Part shown: one piece after another, positions 2,311-62,069 of the stretch | How positions within the stretch are numbered: the stretch's first letter is position 1 | Layout: every line of letters begins with the position of its first letter | NCBI GenBank assembly: GCA_049514435.1 | Contig: JBEKVB010000003.1 | Location: 153,848 to 217,847 of the forward strand | DNA from: Smithellaceae bacterium | GTDB taxonomy: Bacteria; Desulfobacterota; Syntrophia; Syntrophales; Smithellaceae | DNA length: 64,000 bases | Reading direction: 5' to 3' | The notes under the pieces: model-generated | The model's input: only the letters and a program-made list of their open reading frames with translations | What the model was told of the DNA's origin: nothing | The model's database searches: none | Program-made: the position numbers and the translations under genes

Positions 2311-2427
2311 AAAATCTTCACCTTTAAGTAGCGCTTAACACGTTCTACGTATTCTTGCAAGAACTATTTTTCTGTTTTTTTAGGATACTAAATCAGGAAA
2401 GGTTATTTTATAGATCAGACCATAGAG

Positions 2428-2482: not shown

Positions 2483-2541
2483 TGGTTGAGTGCAACGTTA
2501 ACAAGAAAAGTAACGATTACGTATAAAGGTATTCACGGTTA

Positions 2542-3174: not shown

Positions 3175-3312
3175 ACCCTTTCCCCTCCTTAAGGCTATGA
3201 GTAAATGACGTTGTTATCTCCGAAATAAAGCCACGTTTGTTTTCTACTAACAATTCAGACGGGACTTCATTTTATGGCAGGTGCCGTGCCTAACCAATAG
3301 ATGGCAAACAAT

Positions 3313-5427: not shown

Positions 5428-5465
5428 ACGGGAACCAAGAATAATTCGAGACTATACAAAGGGCA

Positions 5466-5519
5466 GTAGGGTTGCCAGCAAACCGAAAATGACGATATAC
5501 TTTTTTGTTTGTTACACCT
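5466..5519 (+). repeat. dispersed repeat family X, copy 2
   Basis: GTAGGGTTGCCAGCAAACCGAAAATGACGATATACTTTTTTGTTTGTTACACCT. Lies 150 nt downstream of the stop of the 5672-8269 gene. A weaker third relative (cctaaccaatagatggcaaac) is at about 3285-3306, just after the stop of the 3313-4785 gene. Confidence 0.6.
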
Positions 5520-5671
5520 ATAAGTCAACAAACATGATAAATAAAAAATTTTGAGGATTTGCGTTTGAAATGTTTGATCTAACATGACCATCAGCGGACC
5601 TGCATGCCGGGTGCTGTGGGGGCCGGGGGGAAAAACCCTCGGCTACCCGATTGACATTGGTTATGCAATCA

Positions 5672-8269
5672 CTACATGAAATTCTGACGTGAGAAACTGT
5701 CGCTAACAGAACTGAACAATGGCCAGAACTTGGCACGACCACATGCTTCGCACATCATCCCGAGTTGAATGCGAGCATCGGTCACTTCATATATGAGCAT
5801 GAAGCCTGACTTTGGCCAATCGCCGCCGATCTCGAAGTTCCAGCGATATTCGACAGCACTGCCAAGAGTGCGACGTGCTGGCTGCGGATTCCAAGTCATC
5901 CTCTGCGGGTGTGCCGCACTCATTTGCTGGAGCAAGAAGAGTCCATATTCCTTTGTGGTTTTCTTCAGGTCATCAGCGCAAGACGTATAGTAAAGGGTAA
6001 TAGACGCATCACTTGGAGTCTTTGTAGTTTCGTCCCAAACCACTTGAGATGAGAATATGGCTATAAATAATGTTTCCAGCCCTGTGGTTCCCGTTACCCC
6101 TTCACGATCTATCTTCCAGTCTGAAGGCAGTACAATCGTTAGATTCGCGGGTACAACTCGGTAGGTAAGAAAGTTTTCGAACCGCTTCTCCCTGACTTCT
6201 GCAAGCCTACCAGCATGATCCCAGTAATGCAGATCGGAGGCAGTTTCAGCAAGGCTTTTTCTGAGCTTCTTGTCAGATGAGAGTGGCGCAGTATTGCTCA
6301 ATTCCACGCACCGAGCAAACCATTTTTTCGTTTCAGTAATGTCACCCTGATCCATATACCCACGACATTTCTCCCGAGACAGCAAGTAATCAAAGATCGC
6401 GGATTCCATATCACGTGGTCCAGCTACTTCCGCCTTGCTGATAAAGCTCAAAGCGCGGGAGCTGTCTCCCGTCTGCAGGCATGCTGTAGCACAATTGAGG
6501 AACGCTTCACCATATTCGGGTAGCAAATTTGCGGCAATCTCCTCGTGCCTTATCGCGTCATGCTCCCTATGCGTTTGCCGTAAGAGGTACGACGAGTATT
6601 CGTGATGGACGACTGCACGTAATATGGTGGTGTCCAAGGACACTGTCGATGGTTTTTCATACCCCAGTTCTTTCAAGTCTTTCTTCATGATATCTTTAAA
6701 CTTTTTCAAGTCTTTTTCGGTGATGTCTTTCCAGACAATCTCTGGAGAGGAAGTAGCCGCAAATCCATATCCATCAGGCCCGCTATCGGGTACTTCGATA
6801 TCGGCAAGCGCTGCGCACAGGCGAAATTCGTGTTCGAGCATTTGGTGCGCATTCCAGTTGCGATTCTCATGAATTTTCATCCTCTGATAGAGTTTAGCAA
6901 GGAGTAGATGGGCTCGAATTTCAATCCATTTCCCAGAATAGACCGCCCGTGGGTCGGGGTGACGAAAGACTCTATAAAGAGCGAGTATAGCTCGCAGATT
7001 GTGTTCTCTTTTCGCGTGTGCTACCGCCAAGAAGTACGCGAAAAAGCGGTCGCGTGGATACCATTTCGCCAGCCATTTCATTAGATGTATATTATCTACC
7101 TGTGGTGGCATATTCTGAAGGTGAGTCCCAAGGGATTTCATCTTATCTTGATAAGCATATCTACTGCGCCGCCGGCGATGCGCTACGGATGTTGCCGCAC
7201 GGATAACGATATTTGCGGTATCGGGACGCCGATCAGGTGGACCGAATTGTCCATCATATACTCTTGACTGCTCATCGAGCATCGGCCACATGCTGGCGAG
7301 AATGAGCTCGATATCACTTCTCGAAGTGCTCATGCCTTGGACTCTCGCAAGTGCACTTAAGTAGTCCAAATGGGGAGGGAGTCCAAAATCCCTCAAGAGT
7401 TTAACTTGACCGTGAAACCACTTCTGTTCGGCCGAAAGGCGCTTCCTGAAAATGTCCCAAGCCATACGCTGCGAGGTCGAGAATCGACTTACGTCGTCAT
7501 CAGTTACTCTGCTGCCAGAATTGAACGTCTGAAGAAACGTTGCAACAGTGTCAAAGCGTCCATCGCATGCAGCGATAAGACTTGCCTTGGTACTTGAAGG
7601 GAGGTGAATCCCGAGTAAGTCGGCAACGACCTCTGCAAAGCGACCATATTCGTCTGGTGTCGCTGGCGGGATCATAAAGGTGTGGCCGTCTGGGAATACA
7701 TCTCGACAGGTGGTTATCGTCAACGGCATCCGATGGGTGTTCACGGTCACGAACATCCCATGAACGTCACAACGGGTTGAGATACTGGTATACAATTTCC
7801 GGATTTGAACAGCAGCTTCGACATACGCAGCCTGACGCTCTAGGAAGGATGAAGATGCCGCAGAAGGAAACCCCCAATCATAGTCATCTATCAAGACGAT
7901 GACACGTCTGACATATTCGCCAATTGGAAGCGAGACTCCCGGACGGACATATCCACGTGCCAGGTAGATTGTCGAAGCTCCTGTCATCTCTGAGAGCTTG
8001 ATTGCTAGATCCGCAGCCTGTCGTGTTTTGCCGACGCCGGAACTACCCAGAAGAACGGTCAGTCCGCTGGATGGGGAGATCTGCAATTCTCTCTGAATAA
8101 TAGGTGGTGTGGAGCGAAGAGGAGATGAGAGCTTAGAGAAGATTTCTTCCACTGGAACCACAGTGAACGGGGATTTCTGATCCGCCCGTAGTCCTCGTAC
8201 GTGATCGCCTATCGCAAATACCGATGCGCATGTTTCTAGGGCTATAATGATGAGGTTGGACCATTCCAT
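5672..8269 (-). CDS. large P-loop NTPase (STAND/AAA-like) with a long helical/TPR-like region and an unassigned ~190-aa C-terminal domain (865 aa)
   Basis: Walker A LLGSSGVGKTRQA. Walker B-like VIVLIDDYDW. A long alpha-helical middle part. Visibly higher G+C than neighbouring DNA. Confidence 0.7.
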   Translation of the reverse strand: MEWSNLIIIALETCASVFAIGDHVRGLRADQKSPFTVVPVEEIFSKLSSPLRSTPPIIQRELQISPSSGLTVLLGSSGVGKTRQAADLAIKLSEMTGASTIYLARGYVRPGVSLPIGEYVRRVIVLIDDYDWGFPSAASSSFLERQAAYVEAAVQIRKLYTSISTRCDVHGMFVTVNTHRMPLTITTCRDVFPDGHTFMIPPATPDEYGRFAEVVADLLGIHLPSSTKASLIAACDGRFDTVATFLQTFNSGSRVTDDDVSRFSTSQRMAWDIFRKRLSAEQKWFHGQVKLLRDFGLPPHLDYLSALARVQGMSTSRSDIELILASMWPMLDEQSRVYDGQFGPPDRRPDTANIVIRAATSVAHRRRRSRYAYQDKMKSLGTHLQNMPPQVDNIHLMKWLAKWYPRDRFFAYFLAVAHAKREHNLRAILALYRVFRHPDPRAVYSGKWIEIRAHLLLAKLYQRMKIHENRNWNAHQMLEHEFRLCAALADIEVPDSGPDGYGFAATSSPEIVWKDITEKDLKKFKDIMKKDLKELGYEKPSTVSLDTTILRAVVHHEYSSYLLRQTHREHDAIRHEEIAANLLPEYGEAFLNCATACLQTGDSSRALSFISKAEVAGPRDMESAIFDYLLSREKCRGYMDQGDITETKKWFARCVELSNTAPLSSDKKLRKSLAETASDLHYWDHAGRLAEVREKRFENFLTYRVVPANLTIVLPSDWKIDREGVTGTTGLETLFIAIFSSQVVWDETTKTPSDASITLYYTSCADDLKKTTKEYGLFLLQQMSAAHPQRMTWNPQPARRTLGSAVEYRWNFEIGGDWPKSGFMLIYEVTDARIQLGMMCEACGRAKFWPLFSSVSDSFSRQNFM

Positions 8270-8318
8270 AGGTTTAGGAATAAAACTCGGTACAAATCGA
8301 TGTATTTAAAATGCAAAC

Positions 8319-8348
8319 AGCGGCGCTGATCGCCAAAGCAGCGCCGCT
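8319..8348 (-). terminator. 10-bp perfect GC-rich hairpin (AGCGGCGCTG / CAGCGCCGCT) followed on the minus strand by GTTTGCATTTT
   Basis: Read directly. Lies 50 nt upstream of the NTPase start, so it would insulate that gene from read-through coming from the right. Confidence 0.4.
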
Positions 8349-8443
8349 TGTTATCAGCCCTTATGAATTTATCACCTCTTATATTAAAAATATACTATGA
8401 AAAGATGAGTTATATAAGCATGATTTTTAGCAAAAAAGCCGTC

Positions 8444-8469
8444 TTTTTTTTCTGAGCCTGTAATGCGCA
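8444..8469 (+). repeat. T-run + CCTGTAATGCGCA motif (family c, copy 1)
   Basis: Related to 8747-8784 and 23091-23124. Confidence 0.45.
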
Positions 8470-8746
8470 AGCAAATATACCCCAATTTCGACCATTTCTG
8501 TAAAAACCAATATTCATATATGTATTAAATATCATTATGCATTATCTAACATATGGTAAAATAAACCTACTCCCACTATTTCTTATAACCGTTGTTTTTT
8601 TATGTCATTTTTTGAGCATTAAACTAGGTAAAATTAACCATTTCTGCGGTAAATTTGCCATCTATTCGCCATACAAATGTATTTATCTATTTGATTTTAC
8701 AAGTGATATAAGAAGTTTTAATACCACCAAAAAATGGCATACCTAA

Positions 8747-8784
8747 TTTTTTTTCAGAAAAAATTTTCGGTCTGCCAATGCGCA
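8747..8784 (+). repeat. family c, copy 2: TTTTCAGAAAAAATTTTCGGTCTGCCAATGCGCA
   Basis: About 28/34 identical by hand to 23091-23124. The reverse complement reads ATGCGCATTGGCAG..., -35-like. Confidence 0.6.
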
Positions 8785-8810
8785 TACGATGTAGGTACAG
8801 ATGGGACTCA

Positions 8811-8866
8811 TACCCTTTGGATAATTATCTTACCCATATCCGTTATAATGATTTGATTATTGACAA
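8811..8866 (+). repeat. family F3, copy 1 (TACCCTTTGGATAATTATCTTACCCATATCCGTT...TTGACA)
   Basis: A second copy lies 132 bp downstream at 8943-8997. Both end in TTGACA. Confidence 0.65.
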
Positions 8867-8942
8867 AACCAAAAGATAATACCATTAATGACTGACCGGT
8901 TAATGAATTAGCTTTAATATTGAGAAATTAAGAAAAGATTCC

Positions 8943-8997
8943 TACCCTTTGAGGAATTATCTTACCATATCCGTTCATATGTCGTAATAAGTTGACA
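8943..8997 (+). repeat. family F3, copy 2 (TACCCTTTGAGGAATTATCTTACCATATCCGTT...TTGACA)
   Basis: See 8811-8866. Confidence 0.65.
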
Positions 8998-9110
8998 TAT
9001 CTTGAGGATAAGTACTTTAATCCCTGTCAGGATGACTTGTTTATATCCGGAAGAAGGGCTTGCTGACTTCACCTACAAACAAACAGATTTATATAGCAAG
9101 AAAAACTGAA

Positions 9111-9135
9111 GATTACCAATTGAAAGAGAGTAACG
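9111..9135 (+). repeat. family F2, copy 1 (GATTACCAATTGAAAGAGAGTAACG)
   Basis: 22/25 identical to 18242-18266. Weaker similarity continues for about 25 nt (cgcc..ggt.gaac). Confidence 0.65.
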
Positions 9136-9180
9136 TTCCGCATTAGACGTTGTGAGCGCCGGTGGAACTGGAGCCATGTT

Positions 9181-9212
9181 TACGAGCAAGTTGTATCGTA
9201 GCATATAAAAAC
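9181..9212 (+). repeat. family F1, partial copy (tacgagcaagttgtatcgtagcatataaaaac), abutting the porin stop codon
   Basis: Aligns with the aacgattacaggttgtaatctagcatataattac part of the 17152-17214 copy. Confidence 0.5.
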
Positions 9213-9221
9213 TGCATCAAA

Positions 9222-10571
9222 TCAAAAACTCAGTCGTACACGAATGGAATACACCGCAACCGGACCACGGTCATTATTGTACCCGGGATTTTGGATGAAT
9301 TGATAGTCCGGACTAATCTGTACATATGAACCAAGCTGGATACGGTAGTAGACTTCCAATATCTGTTCCCAGCCATACTTCAAATGGCCGTCGCCCAACA
9401 TAAAACCGTTGCCACCCGCTTCTAGATAATCTTTGTGCTGGGTCGACAATCCATCGACCAAATAGGCAACCCCTACACGGTCTTCCTTACGGCCCCAATG
9501 AATCCCGCTCACCTGTATTCCTGCACTCAGATGTTGATCCGCTTCAGTATACATGAAATCTTCATTTGACCCATCATTCCAACCTAACCTAGCAAAAAGA
9601 CCTGTTTCACCATCATCCATTAAAGGTTGTTCCAAATTGATTCCAAACCCACACTTGGTGCGTCCTTCTTTATCATCGGCCCTGACATCCGGTATGGCAC
9701 CTGTGAGTTGTCCTAAACTAATTGATTCATTATAATTTCCCATTCTTCCACGATTATAATATGTAAGGAATCTTAGTACCGTCCCCTTCTCATTTGGTTT
9801 TACAGTCAGCTCTAGATTATAGCCGCCAGCCTCAAAGATGTTGTTGTCTAAATCATTGCCATTGGCCACGATCGGCATCTGGTAGTAGCCCAAAGCCAGT
9901 TTCCATTGGGGCATGACCAATGCAATAAGGACACCATTACTGTAGCCCCTGGTGTCTGCTGCAAAATCCCAGGCAGTATTGTTGATAAACCCCCAGTTGA
10001 GGAACTGGGTGCGTGTATTGTTGGCATAGCGGTTTACGTCGAAATCGTCCGTTGCCGCAAGCCTCCCTGCTTTTATCTCGATCCGGCTTACGTATTCTAC
10101 ACCTGGGAGTTGATCCATAGCCCTTTCCACTTTTTCCGTTTTCCCGGATAGTGGATAGACATACCGGGCATAGAAACGGGCGATATATGGTCCATCCCCC
10201 AGATCAGCTGATCCCTCCCGAATTACATCTCCATTAGTATAAGCACCAAGACCCACAGCATTGCTGATCCCATATCCCCTAGCCATTTCGACATCAAGAT
10301 ATAACTGTAGGAATTGGGTAATCTGAGAACCGATATAGAGACCATAAATCTGTGTCGATCCGTGTCCCTCGTTATTATTGGTCGTCAAGCTGTTTGGTCC
10401 TTGGTAGGGACTGTGAAAGTCGGGCATGTTCTGGTAAATTTCATTGTATTGCATTCCCAACACTTTAGGCACCCACTCAGGCATTTTGAAATCATCAGCA
10501 TATGCAAGGCAGGCAAACACATTCAGTATCGCTGCAATCAGGATTATCCGATAAAACTTTGACATTTTCAT
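9222..10571 (-). CDS. outer-membrane beta-barrel porin, OprB (carbohydrate-selective porin)-like
   Basis: Signal peptide MKMSKFYRIILIAAILNVFACLAYA. FHSPYQGPNSL motif typical of the OprB family. Alternating beta-strand pattern. C-terminal ...RVRLSF with terminal Phe. Confidence 0.65.
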   Translation of the reverse strand: MKMSKFYRIILIAAILNVFACLAYADDFKMPEWVPKVLGMQYNEIYQNMPDFHSPYQGPNSLTTNNNEGHGSTQIYGLYIGSQITQFLQLYLDVEMARGYGISNAVGLGAYTNGDVIREGSADLGDGPYIARFYARYVYPLSGKTEKVERAMDQLPGVEYVSRIEIKAGRLAATDDFDVNRYANNTRTQFLNWGFINNTAWDFAADTRGYSNGVLIALVMPQWKLALGYYQMPIVANGNDLDNNIFEAGGYNLELTVKPNEKGTVLRFLTYYNRGRMGNYNESISLGQLTGAIPDVRADDKEGRTKCGFGINLEQPLMDDGETGLFARLGWNDGSNEDFMYTEADQHLSAGIQVSGIHWGRKEDRVGVAYLVDGLSTQHKDYLEAGGNGFMLGDGHLKYGWEQILEVYYRIQLGSYVQISPDYQFIQNPGYNNDRGPVAVYSIRVRLSF

Positions 10572-10684
10572 AATAAAACCTCAGGAATCGAAACTCTTTT
10601 CAGTATTCTCAAACCAGGTCGTATGTAAATTCCTGATTGCTTCCGCGCTCAGCACTTACAAAATGAAATGGTTAATTCAGTGAT

Positions 10685-10798
10685 TTATGAAAAAGTCTTT
10701 ATAAATTTCACAAGAAGTAGCCCTATAAGAAATATCATGTAAAATCTCAAGAATAATAGCGCAATTCTAGTCGTTTTGGTCATCTTGATACGTGCCAT
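10685..10798 (-). CDS. small ORF, 37-aa single-TM peptide (MARIKMTKTTRIALLFLRFYMIFLIGLLLVKFIKTFS), not in the ORF track
   Basis: ATG preceded by GAAGGAGG (6-nt spacing), starting 12 nt after the stop of the MgtE-N/CBS gene. Basic N-terminus plus one hydrophobic helix. Confidence 0.35.
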   Translation of the reverse strand: MARIKMTKTTRIALLFLRFYMIFLIGLLLVKFIKTFS

Positions 10799-10810
10799 AT
10801 TTCCTCCTTC

Positions 10811-12109
10811 TTATATCTTTATACGTGTGGCCATGGTTTTCATGACGTCATTATAGAGAATGACACCCAGGATATTATCCGCACTATCGACCACAGGAAC
10901 CATCCGATAATGATATTTGGCAAACAATTCAGCCAAATCATCGGGATTATCATCTTGTTCCGCCGTGACCACAGGCGCCATCATTATCTCGGCAAGCATT
11001 TTGTTTTGATCAGCAACTATAAGCTCGCGTACATCAACGACTCCCAAGAGTTTGTGACCGTCGTCATCAACAACATAGAGATAGGAAATGTTATGGTATT
11101 CGAGGCCGGAATGCTGAACCCTGTTCAGGGCATCACCGACACGGACATCTTTCTTTATGGCCAGAAACGCTGAGGAGACCAGCCTTCTGGCAGTCGTCTC
11201 TCGCTCCGCTAGAATGGCGCGAACCCGTTCAGCCTGTTCTTTATCCAATAAATTTATAAACTGAGATACCTGATCGTAGGGCAGAACGGAAAAAAGAGCT
11301 GCCAACTGCGGGACTGACATTTCGCTGAAGATCATCCGGGCCCTTTCCTGTCGAATATTAGCGATTATCTGCCGCTGGGCGCGAGGTTCCGCTTCTGCGA
11401 GTGCCTCGGCGGCTTTTTCCGAATCAAGTCCTAAGAGGAGCGCCTGCTGTTCTTCCTCAGGGAGTTCCTCCAGTATATCGGCTAGATCCTCGGAGGGAAG
11501 TTTGGTGAGCTGATTTTTTGTTACCGACAGGGAAACCTTACCCGTTGCAACCACATCTTCGACTGACAAGGGCTGAACAAATTTCCAGGAGATGAGATCT
11601 TCTTTTATCCATTTTAGTTTGCCCAATCCCCAACGTTTCAGGTGACCAGCAAAAGAAATATCGACGTGCACCAGGAAAAGCTTCTCCTTTGACATCAACA
11701 GGTGAATATCGTTGACAACTTCGACGCGCCGATCGTCCATATCCACCACGGTCCTTCCCATCAGATGTTTATCCAGAAGAATCCAGCCAGCCTGGTCAAT
11801 AAAGGGTGGGTAAGTTGCATTATCAGGAGGCCGGACGATAATGGAGTCCTCTTTCAGGTGGCTGACCTTTTCCCACGGGATGAAGGTACTCGGCTTTCCC
11901 CAGCCGTGCTCCATATATATCCCGACAGCTTCCGGATAGGGCTCCGTGAGAGAAAACACCAGATCGGTTAATTTTCCAATCCGGTTTTCAAGTTTCTCTA
12001 CACAGATCGGCCGTTTGATGAGCTCTGACAAATAATAGAATTGGTAGCTGTTCTGCGGTTCGGACTCCTTCATGCCATTCTTTTTCACTATCATTGCGCG
12101 ATCCTCCAT
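10811..12109 (-). CDS. soluble MgtE-like regulatory protein: PRC-barrel-like N-terminus + MgtE N-domain + CBS pair, no MgtE membrane domain
   Basis: LPSEDLADILEELPEEEQQALLLGLDSEKAAEALAEAEP is the MgtE_N signature. C-terminal tandem CBS-like segments. The ATG lies 2 nt after the NRAMP stop (TAAGGATG). Confidence 0.75.
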   Translation of the reverse strand: MEDRAMIVKKNGMKESEPQNSYQFYYLSELIKRPICVEKLENRIGKLTDLVFSLTEPYPEAVGIYMEHGWGKPSTFIPWEKVSHLKEDSIIVRPPDNATYPPFIDQAGWILLDKHLMGRTVVDMDDRRVEVVNDIHLLMSKEKLFLVHVDISFAGHLKRWGLGKLKWIKEDLISWKFVQPLSVEDVVATGKVSLSVTKNQLTKLPSEDLADILEELPEEEQQALLLGLDSEKAAEALAEAEPRAQRQIIANIRQERARMIFSEMSVPQLAALFSVLPYDQVSQFINLLDKEQAERVRAILAERETTARRLVSSAFLAIKKDVRVGDALNRVQHSGLEYHNISYLYVVDDDGHKLLGVVDVRELIVADQNKMLAEIMMAPVVTAEQDDNPDDLAELFAKYHYRMVPVVDSADNILGVILYNDVMKTMATRIKI

Positions 12110-12111
12110 CC

Positions 12112-13419
12112 TTACTTAAATAGTTCAGGGAAAAGGGTACTGATGCCCAACAGTGTCGAAACTAAAACGACAACTATGACAATCGACCAATTCATAATAT
12201 TTTCCCATCTTGTATTGACATGCTTACCCATGAGGGGTTCGTCATTCAGCAACAAAAGCAAAAACACCAGTGCCGGCGGAAGCAGCGTAACGGCCACGAC
12301 CTGTACGAACATGGTGATTGTTATTAAGGGTGCTCCCGGGATCAGGACCACAGCGCCTGAAGTCAGCAGCATGAAAAGATAGACGAAATAAAACCAGGGG
12401 GCATCTTTGACTTTCTTGTTCAGGGAATGAGCCCAGCCGAAGATCTCCCCCACAGCCCAGGATGTGGACAGCGAAATACAGAGCGCTCCCAGGAACCCTG
12501 CATCGAAAAGACCAATGGCAAAAAGTCTGCGGGCCATTTCCCCTTTCCCATGCGACAGGAAAGGAACAATGGCCTCCGCCGTTTGCCGGGCGTCTTCTAT
12601 TTCGATAGGGGGTTTATGATAATAGAAAATTGCAGCTGTCGTAATTATAATAAATACAGCTACAACACACGTGGATATAGATCCAAGGAAGGTCTCCAGT
12701 TTGCCGAATTTGATGTCATGAATATCGAGTTTTTTATCAACTACAGCGCTTTGCTGGAAAAAGAGCATCCAGGGTGCGATGGTTGTTCCGATATTGGCCA
12801 TAATAATAAAAATCAGATCAGATGTCATGCCGCCCATTTGAAAAGTGTAAAACCCCTTGAACGCTTCGTTCCACGAGGGGGAAGACGGCATATCCATTGC
12901 CCAGATGGCAGCTGGTATATAGACAAGATTAAACAAACAGAAGAATAATGTTATTTTCTCGAAGGTCCAGTATTTACCGGTGATAACGATGGCAAAGAGA
13001 ATTGCCGTTACCACAAGGAAAGTGATCCAGGCGGGTACGCCAAAAAGGCTCATTGCCGCGGTCATCCCTATATATTCTGTAATCAGTGTTAACCAATTTG
13101 TAATCGCAAGGTCTGTGAGCGAAAACCAGCCCCAGAAAGGACCGAAAGCGTCAAAGATGGCTTCCGCATGTCCCCGCTTGGTAACAGCGCCCAAACGAAC
13201 TGTCATTTCCTGGACGTAATAAGCCATAAATATTAATAATATAAACATCCAGAGCAGGGAGAACCCGAATTTGGATCCGGTTACGGCATAGGTGGAAATG
13301 CCGCCGGCATCATTATCAGCCACCATCACGATTATTCCGGGTCCCAGCACAGCCAGAAAAACAATTAGCTGCCGGCGGAAGCGATTCAATAAATGAAGAC
13401 TCTTAGAGATCAAATACAT
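12112..13419 (-). CDS. NRAMP/SLC11-family transporter of the NRAMP-related Mg2+ transporter (NRMT) type
   Basis: 11-12 TM NRAMP architecture. The TM1 motif reads DNDAGG (canonical DPGN). The TM6 motif reads GTTIAPWMLFF (canonical GAT-V-MPHNLYLH), so the metal-binding Met and Asn are replaced. Preceded by an M-box riboswitch. Confidence 0.8.
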   Translation of the reverse strand: MYLISKSLHLLNRFRRQLIVFLAVLGPGIIVMVADNDAGGISTYAVTGSKFGFSLLWMFILLIFMAYYVQEMTVRLGAVTKRGHAEAIFDAFGPFWGWFSLTDLAITNWLTLITEYIGMTAAMSLFGVPAWITFLVVTAILFAIVITGKYWTFEKITLFFCLFNLVYIPAAIWAMDMPSSPSWNEAFKGFYTFQMGGMTSDLIFIIMANIGTTIAPWMLFFQQSAVVDKKLDIHDIKFGKLETFLGSISTCVVAVFIIITTAAIFYYHKPPIEIEDARQTAEAIVPFLSHGKGEMARRLFAIGLFDAGFLGALCISLSTSWAVGEIFGWAHSLNKKVKDAPWFYFVYLFMLLTSGAVVLIPGAPLITITMFVQVVAVTLLPPALVFLLLLLNDEPLMGKHVNTRWENIMNWSIVIVVVLVSTLLGISTLFPELFK

Positions 13420-13734: not shown

Positions 13735-13760
13735 CGATATGTACATAATGCCTCGAATCC

Positions 13761-13917
13761 CCTCTCGTTGATTTTCGGCAGTGCACAACGTAGATCCTTT
13801 GTGACCAGCTACTTCGGGTAAAGCCTTAAGCCGGCAATACCTGGTCTACCCATTGGCGTCTTTCGACATTTCCGGGCAGCAGCCTGTGTTTGTGCAAACG
13901 CCTCATGCTAACGAGGA
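13761..13917 (-). promoter_or_regulatory. M-box (ykoK leader) Mg2+-sensing riboswitch
   Basis: The minus-strand RNA reads CCUCGUUAGCAUGAGGC...GCUGCUGCCCGGAAAUGUCGAAAGACGCCAAUGGGUAGACC...CUUAAGGC...GUAGCUGG...CACUGCCGAAAAUCAACGAGAGG. These blocks match the conserved M-box cores as I recall them from the B. subtilis mgtE leader (GUUAGGUGAGGC, GCUGCUGCCC-AAAAUGUCCAAAGACGCUAAUGGGU, UAAGG, GCAGCUGG, GUGCUAAAGCUCUACGA). Confidence 0.8.
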
Positions 13918-13926
13918 ATGACAGCG

Positions 13927-21047: not shown

Positions 21048-22087
21048 TTCACCTGACAAAGCATGGTTCCGAATTCCCTTTTAGTAAGTTTTTCAACATT
21101 AATCTCTCGCCTTCCATTCCCTTGACCGCTTCTTCCGCTCTTTCACCATCAGTCACTTTCCGGTTATCCCACCGGAAAGAAAACTCATTGCAATATCTTC
21201 CTAAATGCTTCTTAGAAATATGATGGAAAGTGCTATTGACACCACGCTTTACTAATGCGAAAAACGATTCCGCTGTGTTAGTAGAAATATCACCATTAAC
21301 ATATTGACCTAATCCGTGATTGACTACTCCGTGTCCACCTTTAAAATCTTTGCCTATTCCTATATAACTTCTAAATTCATCAGTTATTATTTTCGATTCG
21401 CTGTCCACTGCTTCTCTAATCGCTGACTTCAATGTCTTGGCTGTCACGTTCTTAACCGGCTTGGTAATTATTCTTCCGCCTCGTTCCACCATTGCCATTA
21501 CTGGAGCCTTCTTAGTTCCTCTGCCTCTTTTTCCACTCCCTTTTCTTGGCTTTCCGCCTATGTAAGTTTCGTCAACTTCAACAGTGCCTTTTAAAGCGGC
21601 AGCCAAAGCACCTTCTTTCATGGCGAGTCTTATTCTGTGAGCAAGATGCCACGCGGATTTATAAGAACCAAGACCTAAGTTTCTTTGAAGCTGAAGGGCA
21701 GAAATTCCCTTTTTGTGAGAACTCATGGAATGAAAAGCCTGAACCCATTGCCTTAAAGTAATATGAGAATCTTCCATTACCGTGCCGATCATAACAGTAA
21801 ATTGTTTACGGCAAGCATTACATTGAATCAAGCCGTCTCTGACCTTTTCAGATTTGCTATTAAGTCTTGTCACATTATCACTTCCGCAATGAGCGCATTT
21901 TACACCTTCCGGCCAGCGGATATGCTCAAGGATTGCCCTTGCTTCATCTTCAGTTAATCGGCAAATGTCTATTGCCGACATCTCCGCAAATCTCTCAAAT
22001 TTAGGTGGTATATATTTCATGGTTTTAACTCCTTTCTCTCTTTTGTTACCCATAATATATACCCGTTTATCTGCTTTGTCAAGTGGA
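21048..22087 (-). mobile_element. IS1595-family (ISXO2-like) insertion sequence, ~1.04 kb
   Basis: Terminal inverted repeats TTCACCTGACAAAGCA (21048-21063) and TGCTTTGTCAAGTGGA (22072-22087), 14/16 complementary. One transposase gene. No clear target-site duplication seen. Confidence 0.65.
21049..22020 (-). CDS. IS1595-family DDE transposase with N-terminal zinc ribbon
   Basis: CAHCGSDNV...CNACRKQFTV zinc ribbon. HKKGISALQLQRNLGLGSYKSAWHLAHRIR HTH. VEVDETYIGGK DDE region. AAGGAG RBS before the MKYIPPKF start. Confidence 0.8.
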   Translation of the reverse strand: MKYIPPKFERFAEMSAIDICRLTEDEARAILEHIRWPEGVKCAHCGSDNVTRLNSKSEKVRDGLIQCNACRKQFTVMIGTVMEDSHITLRQWVQAFHSMSSHKKGISALQLQRNLGLGSYKSAWHLAHRIRLAMKEGALAAALKGTVEVDETYIGGKPRKGSGKRGRGTKKAPVMAMVERGGRIITKPVKNVTAKTLKSAIREAVDSESKIITDEFRSYIGIGKDFKGGHGVVNHGLGQYVNGDISTNTAESFFALVKRGVNSTFHHISKKHLGRYCNEFSFRWDNRKVTDGERAEEAVKGMEGERLMLKNLLKGNSEPCFVR

Positions 22088-23124: not shown

Positions 23125-23360
23125 TGAAGGAGGGATACCTCACAAACGGGGCGACCCTATCTCTTAAAAAAGGGGGTATCCGGGGGGTAAAGGGAAGCAT
23201 TCTTTTTGGGTGTGCGATCTGCTACGGAAGGTGTAACTAAATTGTAACCGTCTTAACCGAAAATAAACAAACATAAACAAACATAATCCAACTTGCTCAT
23301 GGTAACATGTCAATATATAAAGGCTTAATTATGATGGGAAATCGCCTTTATGTTAGTTAC

Positions 23361-23427
23361 GACTTCAAATCCAGTGTGGGGCGCTAGAACCGTCCCGGGT
23401 GGGTTCGATTCCCATGCGCTTCCGCCA
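23361..23427 (+). pseudogene. selC: 3' half of tRNA-Sec (selC): anticodon loop CU-UCA-AA, long variable arm, T-arm, 8-nt acceptor strand, G73, CCA. The 5' half is missing (att-type remnant).
   Basis: GACTTCAAATCCAGTGTGGGGCGCTAGAACCGTCCCGGGTGGGTTCGATTCCCATGCGCTTCCGCCA closely parallels the 3' half of E. coli selC as I recall it (GGACTTCAAATCCAGTTGGGGCCGCCAGCGGTCCCGGGCAGGTTCGACTCCTGTGATCTTCCGCCA). Upstream sequence cannot pair with GCGCTTCC or TCCAG. Confidence 0.7.
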
Positions 23428-30412: not shown

Positions 30413-32140
30413 TCAGAGAAAAGACCAAAGGAAAACACTTAAACCCGCAATAATATAGATTGTTTCCAGTATACCTTCCATAACCGCCCCGGAAAGCCCG
30501 GACGTTCTATCACAAAGATGGAAACAAATCCATATATATAATAAGCAGGCAAGCAGGAAAAAACTTAAAGAAGAAGTCCATCCTGCTGCATAAGAAAAAA
30601 GAAGAATAGCGAATAAAATCAAGGAGATAATTTTGAGGACATTTTTTGTGTTAGCTTTACCAAACAGCACAGGAATCGTTTCCCGTCCGATTAATTTATC
30701 ACTTTGAAATTCCAAAATGTCCGACATCGCCGAACGAATAAAAACAATTCCAAAGGCAAAGCCAAAGGCAACGATCATTTGTGCATTTAAAAAATTATTT
30801 ATGTTTAATGCCGGTAAAATCGCCGTTACCGTTCCCCATGCTGTAGCCATAAATATATTTTTCGAGCCGGGCAAATCTTTTAACCTTTGGAAACGCCATC
30901 CTTTTGGCATAATTTTCATGTTGTAAAGTAAACCGGCAAGAGAAATAAAAAACAAAAACGTAAAGGGAAGAGCACCATTAATAAACGCCAACACAAGAGC
31001 AATCACAATAGAAAATACGGCGGCGTAAAGATAGAATTTTCCGTGTTTACGGTAAGTCTCTTCCCGAAATGAACCAATGAAACCAGCGGGCTTGCGGCTA
31101 ATCAAGCGATTTAACACATGCATACCGTATACAAAAAAAGAGGCTATGGCAACATACGATATGTTTACGTTTATTTCCTGCAATAACATGCACGCCACAC
31201 AAAGACATCCGGCACCAATAGCGGAATACACATCGGTTCTAATCGCCAATAGCCAAAGATTTAATAGAAATCCTACAGTTTTCAATTTACGGCTTTGTCC
31301 GTCCGCAATTTTATCCATCACACGGTCGATAATCCAATTGGGGGTGGAAGCTCCTGCTGAAACCCCAATGCGATCGTAAAGAGCAAAATTTACATTTTCC
31401 ATTTCCGTGGCAGTCTCAATATGGAAGGTAGGCGTTTGCTGCTTTCGAGCAAGATCGGCCAGTCTTCTGGTATTGGCGCTATTTTTTCCGCCGACAATAA
31501 ATATGGCGTCCATTTCTCCCGCCAGGGATATAATTTCAGCTTGTCTTTGCTGCGTTGAAGAGCAAATTGTATTAAATACAATAGCTTGGGGATAAATCTT
31601 TTTTATTTTATTGATTATCTTTTCGTAATTATCTGAAGTTTGTGTAGTTTGAGCAACAACACAAACTTTCCCTAAAGAGGGCAATTTATCTACATCTTCG
31701 GTCGTAATTACAGTGATGCCTCGTCCGCCGGTATAACCTAAAAGAGCGTTAACTTCAGGATGTTCTTTATCACCAACAATTACTACTGTATAATCAAGCG
31801 CCGTATGTTTTTTGATAATAGCCTGTACATAACCGACTTTAGGACAGGTGGCATCAATTATTCTTATGCCGCTTTCTTTAATTTTTTTCCTTTCAACGGG
31901 AGCTATGCCATGTGCCCTAATAATAAGAACTGCGTTTTGCCTGTCTCTAACCTCTTCAATATTTTCTACCGGGTTAACTCCGCGGGTCTTGAGCAACTCA
32001 ATAGTTTGCGGATTATGGATTAACGGGCCGTAAGTATAAATACTGCGTCCGGTTTCATGTTGCGCGATCTCCAGCACAATATCTACTGCCCTTCGTACGC
32101 CCATGCAAAAACCAGCCGTCTTGGCAAGTTTAATTTCCAT
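30413..32140 (-). CDS. ispH: 4-hydroxy-3-methylbut-2-enyl diphosphate reductase (IspH/LytB) fused to a ~290-aa polytopic UbiA-prenyltransferase-like membrane domain
   Basis: N-terminal 283 aa carry the three IspH Cys motifs (GFCMGV, ATCPKV, NTICSST). The C-terminus has about 8 TM helices with LKDLPGSKN and DILEFQSDKLIGRETIPV, resembling the UbiA-family Asp-rich motif. Confidence 0.8.
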   Translation of the reverse strand: MEIKLAKTAGFCMGVRRAVDIVLEIAQHETGRSIYTYGPLIHNPQTIELLKTRGVNPVENIEEVRDRQNAVLIIRAHGIAPVERKKIKESGIRIIDATCPKVGYVQAIIKKHTALDYTVVIVGDKEHPEVNALLGYTGGRGITVITTEDVDKLPSLGKVCVVAQTTQTSDNYEKIINKIKKIYPQAIVFNTICSSTQQRQAEIISLAGEMDAIFIVGGKNSANTRRLADLARKQQTPTFHIETATEMENVNFALYDRIGVSAGASTPNWIIDRVMDKIADGQSRKLKTVGFLLNLWLLAIRTDVYSAIGAGCLCVACMLLQEINVNISYVAIASFFVYGMHVLNRLISRKPAGFIGSFREETYRKHGKFYLYAAVFSIVIALVLAFINGALPFTFLFFISLAGLLYNMKIMPKGWRFQRLKDLPGSKNIFMATAWGTVTAILPALNINNFLNAQMIVAFGFAFGIVFIRSAMSDILEFQSDKLIGRETIPVLFGKANTKNVLKIISLILFAILLFSYAAGWTSSLSFFLLACLLYIWICFHLCDRTSGLSGAVMEGILETIYIIAGLSVFLWSFL

Positions 32141-37564: not shown

Positions 37565-38590
37565 ATGAAGAAGAATGATCTATTAAGTCAGAAAGTGGAA
37601 CATATCGACATTAAGTCCATCAACGCAGTGGCTATTATCAAAGCCATGAAAAAGATGTCTTTTTCCGCTCGTGATTTAGCGACAGCTGCCGATATTTACG
37701 ACCGGATGCTCAAAGAAAAAAACTGTGTAATTATCTTAACACTGGCTGGTTCTACTTCCGCCGCGGGGTGCATGCAAGTTTATGTTGATTTGGTGAAAAA
37801 TAACATGGTGGATGCCATAGTGGCCACTGGCGCTTCGATTGTCGATATGGATTTTTTTGAAGCTTTAGGATTCAAGCATTATCGGGGGACACCCTTTGTT
37901 GATGATAAATTGTTGCGTAAACTTTATATCGACCGGATATACGATACTTTCATAGATGAAGAACAACTCCAGGTTTGTGACCGCACGATTAAGAAAATAG
38001 CGGATGCTCTTCCTCCACGTTCTTATTCTTCGCGTGAATTTATTGGTGAAATGGGCAAATATTTACAGAAGCACGCCAAAAAGAAGGCTTCCCTGGTACA
38101 GACAGCTTACGAGCATGATGTTCCTATTTTTTGTCCGGCTTTTTCAGATAGCTCGGCCGGTTTCGGCCTTGTGCTCCATCAGCACAAACGCCCGGAGAAT
38201 CACATTTCCATCGATTCTGTAAAAGATTTCCGGGAATTAACGCTGATTAAAATCAAAGCGGGTACCAGCGGCTTATTGATAATTGGCGGCGGTGTTCCCA
38301 AAAATTTTGCCCAGGATACGGTTGTGTGTGCGGAAATATTGGGCAAGAAAGTACCGATGCATAAATACGCTATTCAAATAACCGTGGCTGACGTTCGTGA
38401 CGGCGCCTGCTCCAGTTCCACTCTCAAGGAAGCAAATTCCTGGGGTAAAGTGAATTCATCTTGCGAGCAAATGGTTTACGCTGAAGCCACCACAGTGTTA
38501 CCTCTGATGGCCAGCTACGCTTACCACAAAGGAAGCTGGAAGAAGCGCAAAATATGGCAATTAGCCGGGATTTTTAATGATAGAAAATAA
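37565..38590 (+). CDS. deoxyhypusine synthase-like protein
   Basis: DHS-family length and motifs ([27 protein letters not shown] with the catalytic-Lys region). Confidence 0.8.
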
Positions 38591-42765: not shown

Positions 42766-42887
42766 AAAGCAAGCTTGGGTCTCATTACCCTCTGCTTTGC
42801 GGGACCAATTTCCCTAGACTTCATTATGAAAATTGGAGTTTCATGAATAAAAGAAGGGGAGAAAATTCTCCCCCCAAGTTCTAAATG

Positions 42888-43205
42888 CTAGCAACTGCAA
42901 GACGAGCCGCAACCTCCGCTATCAGCCGGAGCAAGGCTGGAAGTTAATTTAAATCCAGATCCTCGCGGCGTACTCACAAAATCAACATTAATCGGCTTTG
43001 CTTGATTATAAATATCTTTATCAATAATATACTTTGTGCCCTTTTCTTCAAACACTTCATCTTCCTTCTTAGGCTCATCCAGAGCCATGCCCAAAGAGGG
43101 GCCAGATCAGCCCAAAGACAAAATTATTCGAACAGCGGAATCTGTATTCTTATCTTTGAGAAAATCTTTGATTACCTCCGCTGCCTTATCCGTTACTGTA
43201 AACAT
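42888..43205 (-). CDS. HesB/IscA-like selenoprotein, 105 codons with in-frame UGA (Sec) at 43107-43109
   Basis: AAGGAGG RBS + ATG at 43205. My translation: MFTVTDKAAEVIKDFLKDKNTDSAVRIILSLG-U-SGPSLGMALDEPKKEDEVFEEKGTKYIIDKD...GGCGSSCSC. The UGA falls at the Cys of the IscA/HesB G-C-S-G motif. The ORF track shows only the part after the UGA. Confidence 0.7.
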
Positions 43206-43420
43206 CACATATCCTCCTTCCGGTGATGGATATTTTTCCATCGATATTTTATTTAAATTAGCCATATTTGATGAGTTGTCAATTACATTTTTTCTAAACC
43301 TTCGTAATGCATTGTCTTTTCACGCATTTGAACTATGAAATTTGTTTCCATTGACATAAAATAGCGATCCCGCTTATCATCCCCAATACAGCAACCAATA
43401 ATACAACCGGGGTAATTTAT

Positions 43421-49257: not shown

Positions 49258-49968
49258 ATGATTGAAAACCTGATTAACAATTTGACATTATATATGCAAG
49301 AATCGGTTCTGTTAGCGTTTCTTGCGGCATATATCGGCGGAGTTCTGATAAGTTTTACGCCTTGCACCTATCCGCTTATTCCAGTAACAGTTGGGTTTAT
49401 CGGAGCACAAGGTTCAACATCCAAACTCCACGGTTTTATTCTTTCGGTTTTTTATGTTGGCGGGCTTGCGCTGACCTATTCCCTTTTAGGAGCTCTGGCC
49501 GCTTTATCCGGTAAACTTTTCGGGCAAATACAGACCACCACCTGGACATATTTCATCATGGCTAACCTTTGCCTTTTTATGGGCTTGGCTATGCTGGATG
49601 TTTTTACAATTTCTTTGCCTATCCCGCAAAAACTCACCAAGTTTTCAGGTAACAAAAAAAACTTCTTCAGCAGTTTTTTAATTGGCGCCATATCCGGTGT
49701 TGTCATTGGCCCCTGCACAGCGCCGGTTTTAGCTGTTTTATTAGGCTATGTCGCCATGCGCAGCAATCTTATACTGGGCATGAGTCTGCTTTTTGTTTTT
49801 GCCTTCGGCATGGGAACGCTGCTGATTATCGCCGGAACATTTGCCGGCCTGATTGCCGCCCTGCCCCGTTCGGGAACTTGGATGACAAAAATAAGTCATG
49901 TCTTCGGTTGGATATTAATTGGCGCAGCCGAATATTTCCTATATACTGCGGGAGCTTTGTCCTTTTAA
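49258..49968 (+). CDS. ccdA: cytochrome c biogenesis / thiol-disulfide electron transporter CcdA (DsbD-core family)
   Basis: Six TM helices. Conserved Cys in FTPCTYPLIP and GPCTAPVL. Confidence 0.85.
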   Translation: MIENLINNLTLYMQESVLLAFLAAYIGGVLISFTPCTYPLIPVTVGFIGAQGSTSKLHGFILSVFYVGGLALTYSLLGALAALSGKLFGQIQTTTWTYFIMANLCLFMGLAMLDVFTISLPIPQKLTKFSGNKKNFFSSFLIGAISGVVIGPCTAPVLAVLLGYVAMRSNLILGMSLLFVFAFGMGTLLIIAGTFAGLIAALPRSGTWMTKISHVFGWILIGAAEYFLYTAGALSF

Positions 49969-49980
49969 AATTACGAGGAT

Positions 49981-50496
49981 TTGATGAATAAAAAAATAAT
50001 TGCATTTTTGATAACTCCACTGGTGCTGATATTCAGCATGGTCACGTTGTCTTTCGGGCAGTTTATTCCTAATGCCCCTTTTAAATCCGAAGAGGTAATT
50101 GCTCCGGATTTTTCTTTAAAAGACCTGCAAGGCAAAACATTCAAATTGAGCAAATATTCCGGCAAACCGGTTTTGTTGTTTTTTGGCGCTACTTGGTGCC
50201 CTTCCTGCCGCGCCGAAATACCTGCCTATAAAAATATCTATGCAACCTATTCGAAAAGCGGGCTGGAAGTCATCTATATAGATATAATGGAACCGGCGGA
50301 GAAAGTGGCGCGTTTTGCCAAGACCAATTCACTCACCTACAAAGTGTTGCTTGATGAAGACGGAAATGTTGCCGATAATTACGGCATTATCGGCGTGCCG
50401 ACATTGATTCTCATCGATAAGCAAGGATATGTCGTTAAAATTAGCCATCGCACAGCGGACTTGCCGCTGAGCAATCTCTTCCCGGCTAAAAAATAG
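49981..50496 (+). CDS. TlpA/ResA-like periplasmic thioredoxin-fold thiol-disulfide oxidoreductase
   Basis: Membrane anchor plus the WCPSC active site. Adjacent to ccdA. Confidence 0.85.
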   Translation: MMNKKIIAFLITPLVLIFSMVTLSFGQFIPNAPFKSEEVIAPDFSLKDLQGKTFKLSKYSGKPVLLFFGATWCPSCRAEIPAYKNIYATYSKSGLEVIYIDIMEPAEKVARFAKTNSLTYKVLLDEDGNVADNYGIIGVPTLILIDKQGYVVKISHRTADLPLSNLFPAKK

Positions 50497-57381: not shown

Positions 57382-57645
57382 TCATACTCCTGATTTCTTG
57401 TAAATTTCCCGCCTGTGGCCAATTCTAAGAATGAGAACGTCGTTATCAATGATGGTGAATATTACCCTGTAATCTCCCACTCGCATTTTTCTTAATCCGG
57501 CAAATTCACCTTTGAGAACCGGATATGATTCAGCACGTGCAGAGATATCCTTTTCGATTTTGCCAAGAATCCGGCGTGCCTCCTTTTTATCGAGACGGCT
57601 GAGGTCTCTTTCAATGGATTTCTTGTATTTGATATTAAAGGCCAA
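57382..57645 (-). CDS. RelE/ParE-family type II toxin
   Basis: 87 aa. LKGEFAGLRKMRVGDYRVIFTIIDNDVLILRIGHRREIY is the family signature. Overlaps the upstream antitoxin by 11 nt. Confidence 0.85.
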   Translation of the reverse strand: MAFNIKYKKSIERDLSRLDKKEARRILGKIEKDISARAESYPVLKGEFAGLRKMRVGDYRVIFTIIDNDVLILRIGHRREIYKKSGV

Positions 57646-57853
57646 GAGTTTTCCTCAACCCTTTTCCTGAAATAATAACATCCTTCGGATTTCTCAAACG
57701 GTCAATGGCGATCCGCAAATCAGCAAAATCTTCAATATATGCTTCCAATGCCTTTTGGATATGAAAAGAACGCGGCCTTTCCGTTTCTTTCGCAATATCG
57801 TCAAGATGCTTTGTTAACTCGTCGGGAAGACGAATAGACACTGTAGCTCTCAT
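57635..57853 (-). CDS. ribbon-helix-helix (CopG/RelB-like) antitoxin
   Basis: MRATVSIRLPDELTKHLDDIAKETERPRSFHIQKALEAYI is an RHH fold pattern. Confidence 0.8.
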   Translation of the reverse strand: MRATVSIRLPDELTKHLDDIAKETERPRSFHIQKALEAYIEDFADLRIAIDRLRNPKDVIISGKGLRKTLGL

Positions 57854-61085: not shown

Positions 61086-62069
61086 ATGTCTAGGGAGATA
61101 TTTTCTGTGAGCAAAGCAAAATTGCCCCAATACGATTATGATACGGTTATTATCGGCGGCGGGCCGGCAGGTTATACTGCGGGCATTTACACCGCACGCG
61201 CCGGGCTTAAAACGCTGCTGGTGGAAGGCGCAGCAACGGTAAGCCAAATAACCATTACCGATCTAATCGAAAATTATCCGGGAATTCCCGACGGCATTAA
61301 CGGTTTTGATCTGATGCAGTTATTTAAAAATCAGGCTCTTAAATTCGGTTTGGAAACACTGGCTAAAGATGTATCTGCAATCAAAAATAATACGTCTTCC
61401 CCTGTTATCTGGAATGTTACAGTGGGAGATAAATCCTTCAAAACTTTAAGTATGATTGCCGCAACCGGCGCGCAGTGGCGCAAACTGGGTGTCCCGGGTG
61501 AGGAAGAATTAGCCGGAAAAGGAGTTTCCTACTGCGCTACCTGTGACGGCCCGTTTTATAAAAATAAAGATGTGGTGGTTGTGGGCGGCGGTGATACGGC
61601 GATTCAGGAAGCTCTCTTTTTAACTCATTTCGCCAAAAAAGTTATCGTAGTCCATCGCCGTGATAGGCTGCGCGCCGCGGGAATTTTACAAAAAAGAGCA
61701 TTTGCCGAAAAGAAAATCGAGTTTGCCTGGAAGGCAAATCTGGTTGAGGTTATCGGCAAAGATTTTGTCACCGGGATTAAGATAGCCAATGTCCAATCCG
61801 GAAAAGTAAGTATTATTTCTGCGGAAGGAGTTTTTATCTTTGTCGGCAGGATTCCCAACACCAGCTTGGTTCAAAATGTTTTAAAATTAGATGCAAACGG
61901 CTATATACTAACGGATGATAATATGAATACTTCCGCCGCCGGTATTTTTGCTGCCGGAGACTGCCGGGCCAAACTTTTCCGGCAAGTAGTAACAGCCGCA
62001 GGCGATGGGGCTAACGCAGCGTTCAGCGCGGAGCTTTATGTAGGAAATATGAAAGGTGAAGCGTATTAA
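61086..62069 (+). CDS. trxB: thioredoxin-disulfide reductase
   Basis: IIGGGPAGYTA, redox CATCDG, GGGDTAIQEA, AAGDC. Confidence 0.92.
   Translation: MSREIFSVSKAKLPQYDYDTVIIGGGPAGYTAGIYTARAGLKTLLVEGAATVSQITITDLIENYPGIPDGINGFDLMQLFKNQALKFGLETLAKDVSAIKNNTSSPVIWNVTVGDKSFKTLSMIAATGAQWRKLGVPGEEELAGKGVSYCATCDGPFYKNKDVVVVGGGDTAIQEALFLTHFAKKVIVVHRRDRLRAAGILQKRAFAEKKIEFAWKANLVEVIGKDFVTGIKIANVQSGKVSIISAEGVFIFVGRIPNTSLVQNVLKLDANGYILTDDNMNTSAAGIFAAGDCRAKLFRQVVTAAGDGANAAFSAELYVGNMKGEAY

Follow-up and report, generated by a model that had tools for sequence, protein, structure and literature searches.

A short reading frame on the minus strand of a Smithellaceae contig (JBEKVB010000003.1) encodes a protein resembling HesB and IscA and is interrupted by an in-frame TGA. 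Is this TGA read as selenocysteine, is it read as another amino acid or does it mark a broken gene? We addressed the question in the window, that is the whole stretch of 64,000 nucleotides that was analysed, and in relatives of the locus. An earlier note on this DNA had proposed a HesB/IscA-like selenoprotein with the UGA encoding Sec. The NF038090 profile, the codons found in relatives and the alignment with IscA, described below, support this proposal.

The gene opens with an ATG (43205-43203), continues with 32 sense codons to the TGA (43109-43107) and then with 72 sense codons to a TAG (42890-42888). Its translation reads MFTVTDKAAEVIKDFLKDKNTDSAVRIILSLG, then TGA, then SGPSLGMALDEP...CGSSCSC. 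The gene and its signals are the following.

42888..43205, minus strand: HesB/IscA-like selenoprotein gene, complete coding sequence of 105 codons with Sec33 counted (from the translation, the full-length NF038090 match and the starts of homologues)
43213..43219, minus strand: Shine-Dalgarno sequence AAGGAGG, with a 7-nt spacer to the ATG (read from the sequence)
43107..43109, minus strand: in-frame UGA, Sec codon for residue 33 in the motif G-U-S-G-P (from the codon census and the alignment to the Cys of the IscA GCSG)
42854..42875, minus strand: intrinsic-terminator-like hairpin and T-run, 12 nt past the stop codon, with a 9-bp stem GGGGGGAGA/TCTCCCCTT followed by CTTTTATT

Direct reading confirms the strong ribosome binding site and the ATG at 43205 that the note had seen opening the frame, and translation confirms the TGA-interrupted frame ending in CGSSCSC. 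The gene is also invisible to the stop-to-stop ORF track, as stated there. The list cuts it into two ORFs, 43107-43265 (52 aa, with an upstream in-frame ATG) and 42888-43094 (68 aa). A look for sigma-70-like promoters in the 60-100 nt directly upstream of the gene gave none. The nearest sigma-70 consensus match on the minus strand is located ~190 nt upstream (43425-43398, 9/12 positions). With a ribosome binding site and a terminator of its own, the hesB-like gene appears to be monocistronic. A survey of the window for TGA-interrupted coding frames gave 24 candidates; the others were rejected as junk frames or as adjacent genes in the same frame.

For profile searches, Sec33 was entered as Cys. 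The protein matches the NCBIfam model NF038090 “IscA_HesB_Se” with 113 bits for a cutoff of 85, residues 1-101 being aligned on profile positions 1-101 of 101. With Pfam PF01521 (Fe-S_biosyn), the joined protein scores 27.3 bits and passes the gathering threshold of 26.3, whereas the N-terminal and C-terminal parts taken separately score 13.1 and 12.8 bits. Thus, homology spans the TGA. The PF01521 scores of the halves and of the whole, together with the NF038090 score, argue for a joined frame far beyond chance. Alignment with Cys- and Sec-containing homologues, suggested as a check in the note, gives a match on both sides of the UGA and not on the post-UGA part alone. The 32 upstream codons were said to look like the N-terminus of the family. 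In agreement with this, NF038090 is matched end to end and the homologues share the start Met, with a stop codon just ahead of it in many of them.

All 58 aligned homologues match NF038090. The window protein has the features of this family: it is ~105 aa long, carries the G-[U/C]-S-G-P motif and ends in the CGSxCSC tail. No difference was detected. From its sequence, the gene is an ordinary NF038090 member encoding a 105-residue A-type-carrier protein of the IscA/HesB/SufA fold. It remains below all cutoffs of the IscA, SufA and ErpA equivalog models in the NCBIfam profile search. The HesB-like family described by Kryukov, Zhang and Gladyshev (TIGR01911) shares with it the superfamily, the position of Sec and the UxGP motif (PMC13188914), here U-S-G-P. 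In contrast, the TIGR01911 model (HesB_rel_seleno) gives 51.8 bits, under its cutoff of 66.35, and the window protein has an extended Cys-rich C-terminus. On these two grounds, we regard its subfamily as a sister to that of TIGR01911.

A search of PDB sequences returned Aquifex AQ_1857 (1NWB), E. coli IscA (1S98/1R94) and SufA, with E values from 1e-11 to 1e-2. In E. coli IscA and AQ_1857, the residue aligned with Sec33 is the Cys of the (S/G)GCSG turn, which confirms that the TGA is located exactly at the Cys of G-C-S-G, as the note had it. C99 aligns with one Cys of the C-terminal CGC motif of IscA. Structure prediction was performed with a natural Cys-form homologue, P0004, 84% identical to the window protein. 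The predicted structure has a pLDDT of 85, the Cys-rich tail (residues 95-105) being of low confidence. Comparison of the model with IscA 1R94 gives TM values of 0.76/0.82, and [2Fe-2S]-IscA 1X0G and SufA 2D2A are also matched. Across the E. coli IscA/SufA/ErpA structures (1R94, 1S98, 1X0G, 2D2A), TM values of 0.70-0.82 for this Cys homologue predict the same fold. The window protein differs from IscA, SufA and ErpA by the Sec in place of the first ligand Cys, by a CGSSCSC tail instead of C-G-C and by the lack of an isc/suf/nif operon. The alignments support a replacement of the first conserved cluster-ligand Cys (E. coli IscA Cys35, in the G-C-S-G turn) by Sec (G-U-S-G-P).

The recognition of HesB-like proteins as a family of prokaryotic selenoproteins dates back to 2004-2006, and 11 bacterial members have been listed (PMC1794560). 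The family occurs in anaerobic deltaproteobacteria. Syntrophus aciditrophicus has 19 selenoproteins, one of them HesB-like (PMC1794560), and an archaeal HesB-like protein was labelled with 75Se in Methanococcus maripaludis (PMC11097638). The note was therefore right to call HesB-like proteins a known selenoprotein family, as borne out by this literature and by the dedicated model NF038090. Because this NCBI model is matched in full and the family has long been recognised, the hesB-like gene is a genuine selenoprotein gene of an already known kind. What is added here is the SECIS of the NF038090 subfamily, a census of its Sec and Cys forms and an explanation of a selC fragment located elsewhere in the window.

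The census relied on two sets of relatives. The first comprises 80 species-representative genomes, all Smithellaceae/Syntrophaceae MAGs, taken from 552 genomes with a relative. The second consists of metagenomic loci that are more distant (n = 80). In the first set (78 motif loci, the window and two identical metagenome contigs), the codon aligned with UGA-33 is TGA in 71 of 80 cases, TGT in 8 and TGC in 1. In the second set, TGA is found 68 times out of 74 and TGT 6 times. When both sets are joined (n = 154), there are 139 TGA and 15 TGT/TGC codons, with no TGG and no other stop codon. The TGA is conserved across 139 related loci spanning 50-95% protein identity, and the share of Sec forms in NF038090-type relatives is ~90%.

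A selC remnant at 23.4 kb had been taken as showing that the organism decodes Sec. The sequence is real, but it is neither a decayed gene nor stand-alone evidence for Sec decoding. Rfam RF01852 matches positions 23338-23423 with 35.4 bits, under its gathering score of 47. The fragment keeps the anticodon loop, the variable arm, the T arm, the 3’ acceptor strand, the discriminator G and the CCA; its 5’ half is unrelated. We rejected it as a functional or degenerate selC because it forms no cloverleaf, stays below the Rfam gathering score and is not called by ARAGORN. Neither an intact tRNA-Sec nor a second copy of the fragment was found inside the window. The window is part of a 248-kb contig (JGI 3300040946, Ga0439239_0000042), from which the flank to its left was read; the sequence L167 overlaps window positions 1-11438 without mismatch. 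The relevant features are listed below in window coordinates.

23361..23427, plus strand: exact 67-nt copy of the tRNA-Sec 3’ end, from the anticodon stem to CCA (distal att repeat by its sequence, not part of the hesB-like gene)
-1125..-1028, adjoining moeA: intact selC (tRNA-Sec), called by ARAGORN as tRNA-SeC with anticodon tca
7 to -1021, next to selC: tyrosine integrase
351-596, by the integrase: Xis-like HTH gene

The intact selC, which the contig carries ~1 kb to the left of the window, scores 72.8 bits with RF01852 (gathering score 47). It folds into an 8/5 cloverleaf (8-bp acceptor stem, 5-bp T stem) with a long variable arm and a discriminator G. Its 3’-terminal 67 nt are exactly those of window positions 23361-23427. 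Thus, the “remnant” is an att repeat and not a decayed gene. Judged from this arrangement, it is the distal att repeat of a ~24.4-kb island integrated into selC. That the organism has a tRNA-Sec follows from the intact selC, not from the 23.4-kb fragment.

UGA-33 could also be read, partly or wholly, as Cys. In this alternative, a selC* tRNA-Cys(UCA) would act with a SelB-like factor recruited by the same hairpin as the one described below for Sec. Such tRNA-Cys species occur in deltaproteobacteria, including a composite Smithella genome (Mukai et al., PMC5389517). Copies of selB* are found in Syntrophobacterales and Cys opal suppression was observed in a reporter (PMC5389517). The natural Cys forms of the census imply that Cys is functionally acceptable at residue 33. 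However, the tRNA on the contig, with its discriminator G73 and 8/5 structure, is a canonical tRNA-Sec and not a selC* (U73), and neither selC* nor selB* was found in the 85 kb examined. The genomes in question were reported to have the full Sec apparatus too, with a complete selA, selB, selC and selD set in the selC*-bearing composite Smithella genome (PMC5389517). Finally, that TGA is so strongly kept in preference to TGY speaks for selection on Sec itself. We consider decoding as Cys improbable, and keep Sec as the residue inserted at UGA-33.

Which RNA signal would direct this insertion? Downstream of the UGA, two small hairpins can be drawn. Their positions are numbered with the U of UGA as 0, in alignment A3, which contains 127 distinct Sec-form segments and no gaps.

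43072..43086, minus strand: putative SECIS core, hairpin B, GGCUC / loop UGGAU / GAGCC, +23 to +37 (from pairing, covariation and synonymous constraint)
43089..43102, minus strand: proximal hairpin A, GCCC / CUCUUU / GGGC, +7 to +20, present in the MFE fold of +3..+40

Hairpin B starts 20 nt past the UGA (20-34 nt) and encodes part of the peptide M-A-L-D-E-P. Its loop is UGGAY across relatives. Synonymous codon entropy, computed over 69 distinct Sec-form genes, falls to 0 bits at Pro+3 (CCC), Ala+8 (GCT), Leu+9 (CTG) and Glu+11 (GAG), versus 1.6-2.4 bits at equally conserved residues taken for comparison (Ala-25, Ala-9, Arg-7, Gly-1, Pro+12 and Gly+51). Standard pairs fill 99.7% of the hairpin B cells in the 127 Sec forms, versus 80% in 14 Cys forms. 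Compensatory double changes affect three of the five pairs in Sec forms and none of the five in Cys forms. Pair 23:37 goes from G-C to A-U in two Sec-form sequences (L138 and L156). Pair 24:36 shows the same change in a third one (L128), in addition to 33 G-U wobbles. Pair 25:35 goes from C-G to U-A in L099 and is U-G in L104. None of 500 shuffles equalled the Sec-form values, hairpins A and B being counted together, and controls with slid partners were at most 49% paired. Since the MALDEP peptide constrains most hairpin positions, the independent information comes only from synonymous sites and from the few covarying sequences. The locus offers an example of an RNA signal and a conserved peptide sharing the same bases.

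The Cys forms behave differently. Their hairpin pairing is no better than that of shuffles (n = 14). Hairpin B is fully intact in 125 of the 127 Sec forms versus 4 of the 14 Cys forms (Fisher p = 1e-10, without correction for phylogeny), and it is part of the MFE fold of +3..+40 in 119 of 127 versus 4 of 14. The breaks in Cys forms include a synonymous change of GAG to GAA. In Sec forms, GAA is found once, and only alongside a compensating change of C25 to U. These observations support hairpin B, GGCUC-UGGAY-GAGCC, as the SECIS of the NF038090 subfamily, an element that would decay in Cys derivatives. HesB-like Sec-to-Cys conversions that leave remnant SECIS-like structures have been described in Desulfitobacterium hafniense, and the decay of the hairpin in the Cys forms matches these remnants.

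Bacterial SECIS elements have been defined by a loop of 3-9 nt, a stem of 4-16 bp, a UGA-loop distance of 16-37 nt and an MFE of at most -7.5 kcal/mol, with a G at loop position 1 or 2 and then a G or a U (PMC13188914). Hairpin B lies within all these limits, with a 5-nt loop starting with U-G-G, a 5-bp stem and a UGA-loop distance of 25 nt. Its dG is -7.6 kcal/mol alone and -8.8 kcal/mol in context. As in the consensus of the E. coli fdhF/Moorella fdhA type, the hairpin is located in the coding region, with a 5-bp upper stem, a 5-nt loop bearing GG at positions 2-3, the same kind of UGA-loop spacing (25 nt here) and a dG no higher than -7.5 kcal/mol. In E. coli fdhF, the hairpin follows the UGA after 11 nt, a spacing shorter than the 20 nt of hairpin B. 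The putative SECIS does not resemble the E. coli element in sequence, and its longer spacer contains a second small hairpin.

Folding of the single sequence past the UGA gave z-scores of -0.23 and -1.54, which are not significant. In free RNA including the upstream sequence, hairpin B has an ensemble probability of 0.006, a competing fold being ~1 kcal/mol better. The support for hairpin B is thus comparative and not thermodynamic. On a ribosome paused at the UGA, we infer that the upstream competing fold is unavailable.

In relatives, hairpin A adopts the register +8-11/+17-20, with three nearly invariant C-G pairs. Its closing pair is standard in 72% of the sequences and both of its sides are changed in 11. 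Cys forms keep hairpin A too, and it is therefore not specific to Sec. It is possibly a spacer or the lower part of the SECIS.

The note had drawn a different SECIS, a long stem in which CUGAUCUGG pairs with CUGGAUGAG around a GCCC/GGGC helix. The inner helix does form here, as hairpin A. The outer helix (-1..+6 with +28..+35) finds no comparative support. In the 127 Sec forms, 82.2% of its pairs are standard, a value equal to the mean of 500 shuffles, 256 of which did as well, and none of its pairs has compensatory changes. At +5, +8 and +32 the bases change freely although their partners are invariant. For this one sequence, the MFE fold of -3..+37 does come close to the long stem (-16.7 to -17.9 kcal/mol). 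Such a stem would sequester the loop residues G29 and G30 as well as the 5’ strand of the covarying hairpin B. Moreover, judging from known ribosome footprints, the ribosome would enclose part of it once the UGA has entered the A site. The long stem is thus very unlikely to be the SECIS. A stable hairpin within the SECIS window, which the note had asked for as a check, is found in hairpin B at 43072-43086, distinct from the pairing that had been drawn.

Could the gene be a pseudogene in which a TGT or TGC codon mutated to TGA? Only a 32-residue fragment, or a 66-residue product starting at the Met of MALDEP, would then be made. This has hardly any chance of being correct, given the conservation of the TGA over the loci of the census, the covarying hairpin found after the TGA in TGA forms only and the intact selC on the same contig. 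In addition, the median pairwise dN/dS against the window (24 unsaturated pairs) is 0.149 before the TGA (codons 1-32) and 0.112 after it (codons 34-91), and both sides of the TGA are thus under purifying selection. On the other side, public databases annotate just such 66-aa products from the MALDEP Met (P0055, P0056, P0060 and others). Also, a search for selA, selB and selD among the large ORFs of the window and the genes called in its two 10-kb flanks found none of them.

An alternative genetic code (table 4 or 25), with UGA read as Trp or Gly, would account for the GWSGP of many database homologues, yet it can be dismissed since TGA terminates 7 of the 35 family-supported genes of the window, consistent with their full-length domain matches, since Trp is encoded by TGG 162 times, since homologues with another codon at the site have TGT or TGC and never TGG and since the W-bearing entries do not translate as such under code 11. 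Codon census, dN/dS values, TGA stops and TGG usage for Trp together exclude both the pseudogene and the alternative code. As far as these comparisons go, UGA-33 is shown to be conserved and translated through.

The protein databases contain full-length GCSGP homologues and full-length GWSGP homologues besides the 66-aa entries. The database copy of the window protein, P0001, has a W at the Sec site and an N-terminal extension from the upstream ATG. Under code 11, its locus does not yield the database sequence. Because the codon is TGA or TGT/TGC and never TGG, the W is an artefact of gene callers using code 4 or 25. Many faulty entries of this sort exist for NF038090-type proteins in public protein databases. 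The value of the present analysis is therefore practical, as it gives the correct annotation of a gene that ORF tracks and most callers split, truncate or mistranslate with W. The SECIS definition proposed above could help automated annotation.

By analogy with the established bacterial mechanism, SelB-GTP with Sec-tRNA-Sec would bind the apical mRNA hairpin GGCUC-UGGAU-GAGCC, the loop of which is 25 nt past the UGA. Sec would then be delivered to the A site at UGA-33, in competition with release factor 2. We hold it highly probable that the gene is a functional selenoprotein gene. In the mature protein, Sec33 together with C99, C103 and C105 of the CGSSCSC tail may bind iron or an Fe-S cluster and transfer it. 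Alternatively, Sec33 and the C-terminal cysteines may take part in thiol/selenol redox chemistry. For the Fe-S carrier function specifically, the chances are perhaps even.

Two further ideas, taken jointly, have little likelihood. Residue 33 might be Sec when selenium is available and otherwise Cys, inserted by means of a SelB paralogue and a tRNA-Cys(UCA) of the selC* type. Or the selenolate ligand, in a Se-ligated Fe-S cluster, might give a distinct cluster-transfer chemistry and not merely mimic Cys. If the dual filling with Sec or Cys were true, a small Fe-S carrier would become a selenium-responsive switch.

No isc, suf or nif genes are present near the hesB-like gene. The local gene order is asd, 3-methyladenine glycosylase, EamA-type transporter, transglutaminase-like protein, hesB-like, TPR protein and two pilT genes, and this neighbourhood yields no functional clue. 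The same gene order is found in four Smithellaceae species genomes (L003-L006), with 89-92% nucleotide identity in the hesB-like region. By this synteny, the chromosomal neighbourhood of the gene in this Smithellaceae (Syntrophales) bacterium is conserved. The G+C content of the window is 43%.

The family of the window's HesB/IscA-like selenoprotein is represented in public protein databases by numerous faulty entries, as revealed by examination of homologues P0001-P0120. In some, tryptophan stands in place of the Sec TGA codon, reflecting gene callers using code 4/25. Others are truncated products that begin only at the Met of the MALDEP peptide, encoded at the SECIS hairpin, and are 66 aa long. 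Finally, the use of upstream ATGs results in N-terminal extensions.

A Cys-form variant was found in the Smithella MAG CAZWCA01, in two copies located on two contigs (loci L062 and L066). The active-site turn of this variant is G-C-C-G-P (Cys-Cys) and the hairpin is intact. The variant possibly corresponds to a recent Sec-to-Cys conversion, or else to duplication or assembly redundancy.

Several thiol-disulfide genes of the window were noted, each of them in the Cys form. Sec forms exist for some of these families in related deltaproteobacteria (PMC1794560).

23547-24245, plus strand: DsbC/DsbG-like protein, directly beside the selC att repeat
49258-50496, plus strand: DsbD_TM/CcdA and AhpC/TSA-thioredoxin-like pair, after tRNA-Leu
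61086-62069, plus strand: thioredoxin-reductase-like flavoprotein

An element about 24.4 kb long is integrated in selC. It spans window positions 1-23427 and about 1.1 kb to the left of the window (negative coordinates; 11432-12564 of the flanking locus L167).

-1125 to -1028: intact tRNA-Sec, left of the window
7 to -1021, minus strand: tyrosine integrase
351-596: Xis-like HTH gene
21049-22053: IS1595 transposase (cargo)
23361-23427: exact att repeat of 67 nt

The cargo also comprises a T5orf172-TPR protein, an 865-aa protein without family, an OprB porin, MgtE-like and Nramp transporters, an M28 peptidase of 998 aa and a dapF-like gene. An M-box (Mg2+) riboswitch and two genes downstream of it all lie within this selC island.

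13753-13922, minus strand: M-box riboswitch (RF00380, 132 bits)
12112-13419: Nramp-family transporter
10811-12109: MgtE_N/CBS/PRC-domain protein

Beyond the element, three further features were observed.

30413-32140, minus strand: 575-aa ORF, LytB/IspH and UbiA prenyltransferase
37565-38590, plus strand: bacterial deoxyhypusine synthase homologue (PF01916, E = 3e-97)
about 57382-57853 (5258-5729 of source-contig locus L165), minus strand: pair of genes for a ParE toxin and an RHH antitoxin, from the gene calls of the source contig

Within the single 575-aa ORF, a full LytB/IspH domain occupies residues 3-278 and a UbiA prenyltransferase domain residues 371-541. The ORF may be an unusual fusion of the isoprenoid pathway. 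It adjoins dxs and a polyprenyl synthetase gene.
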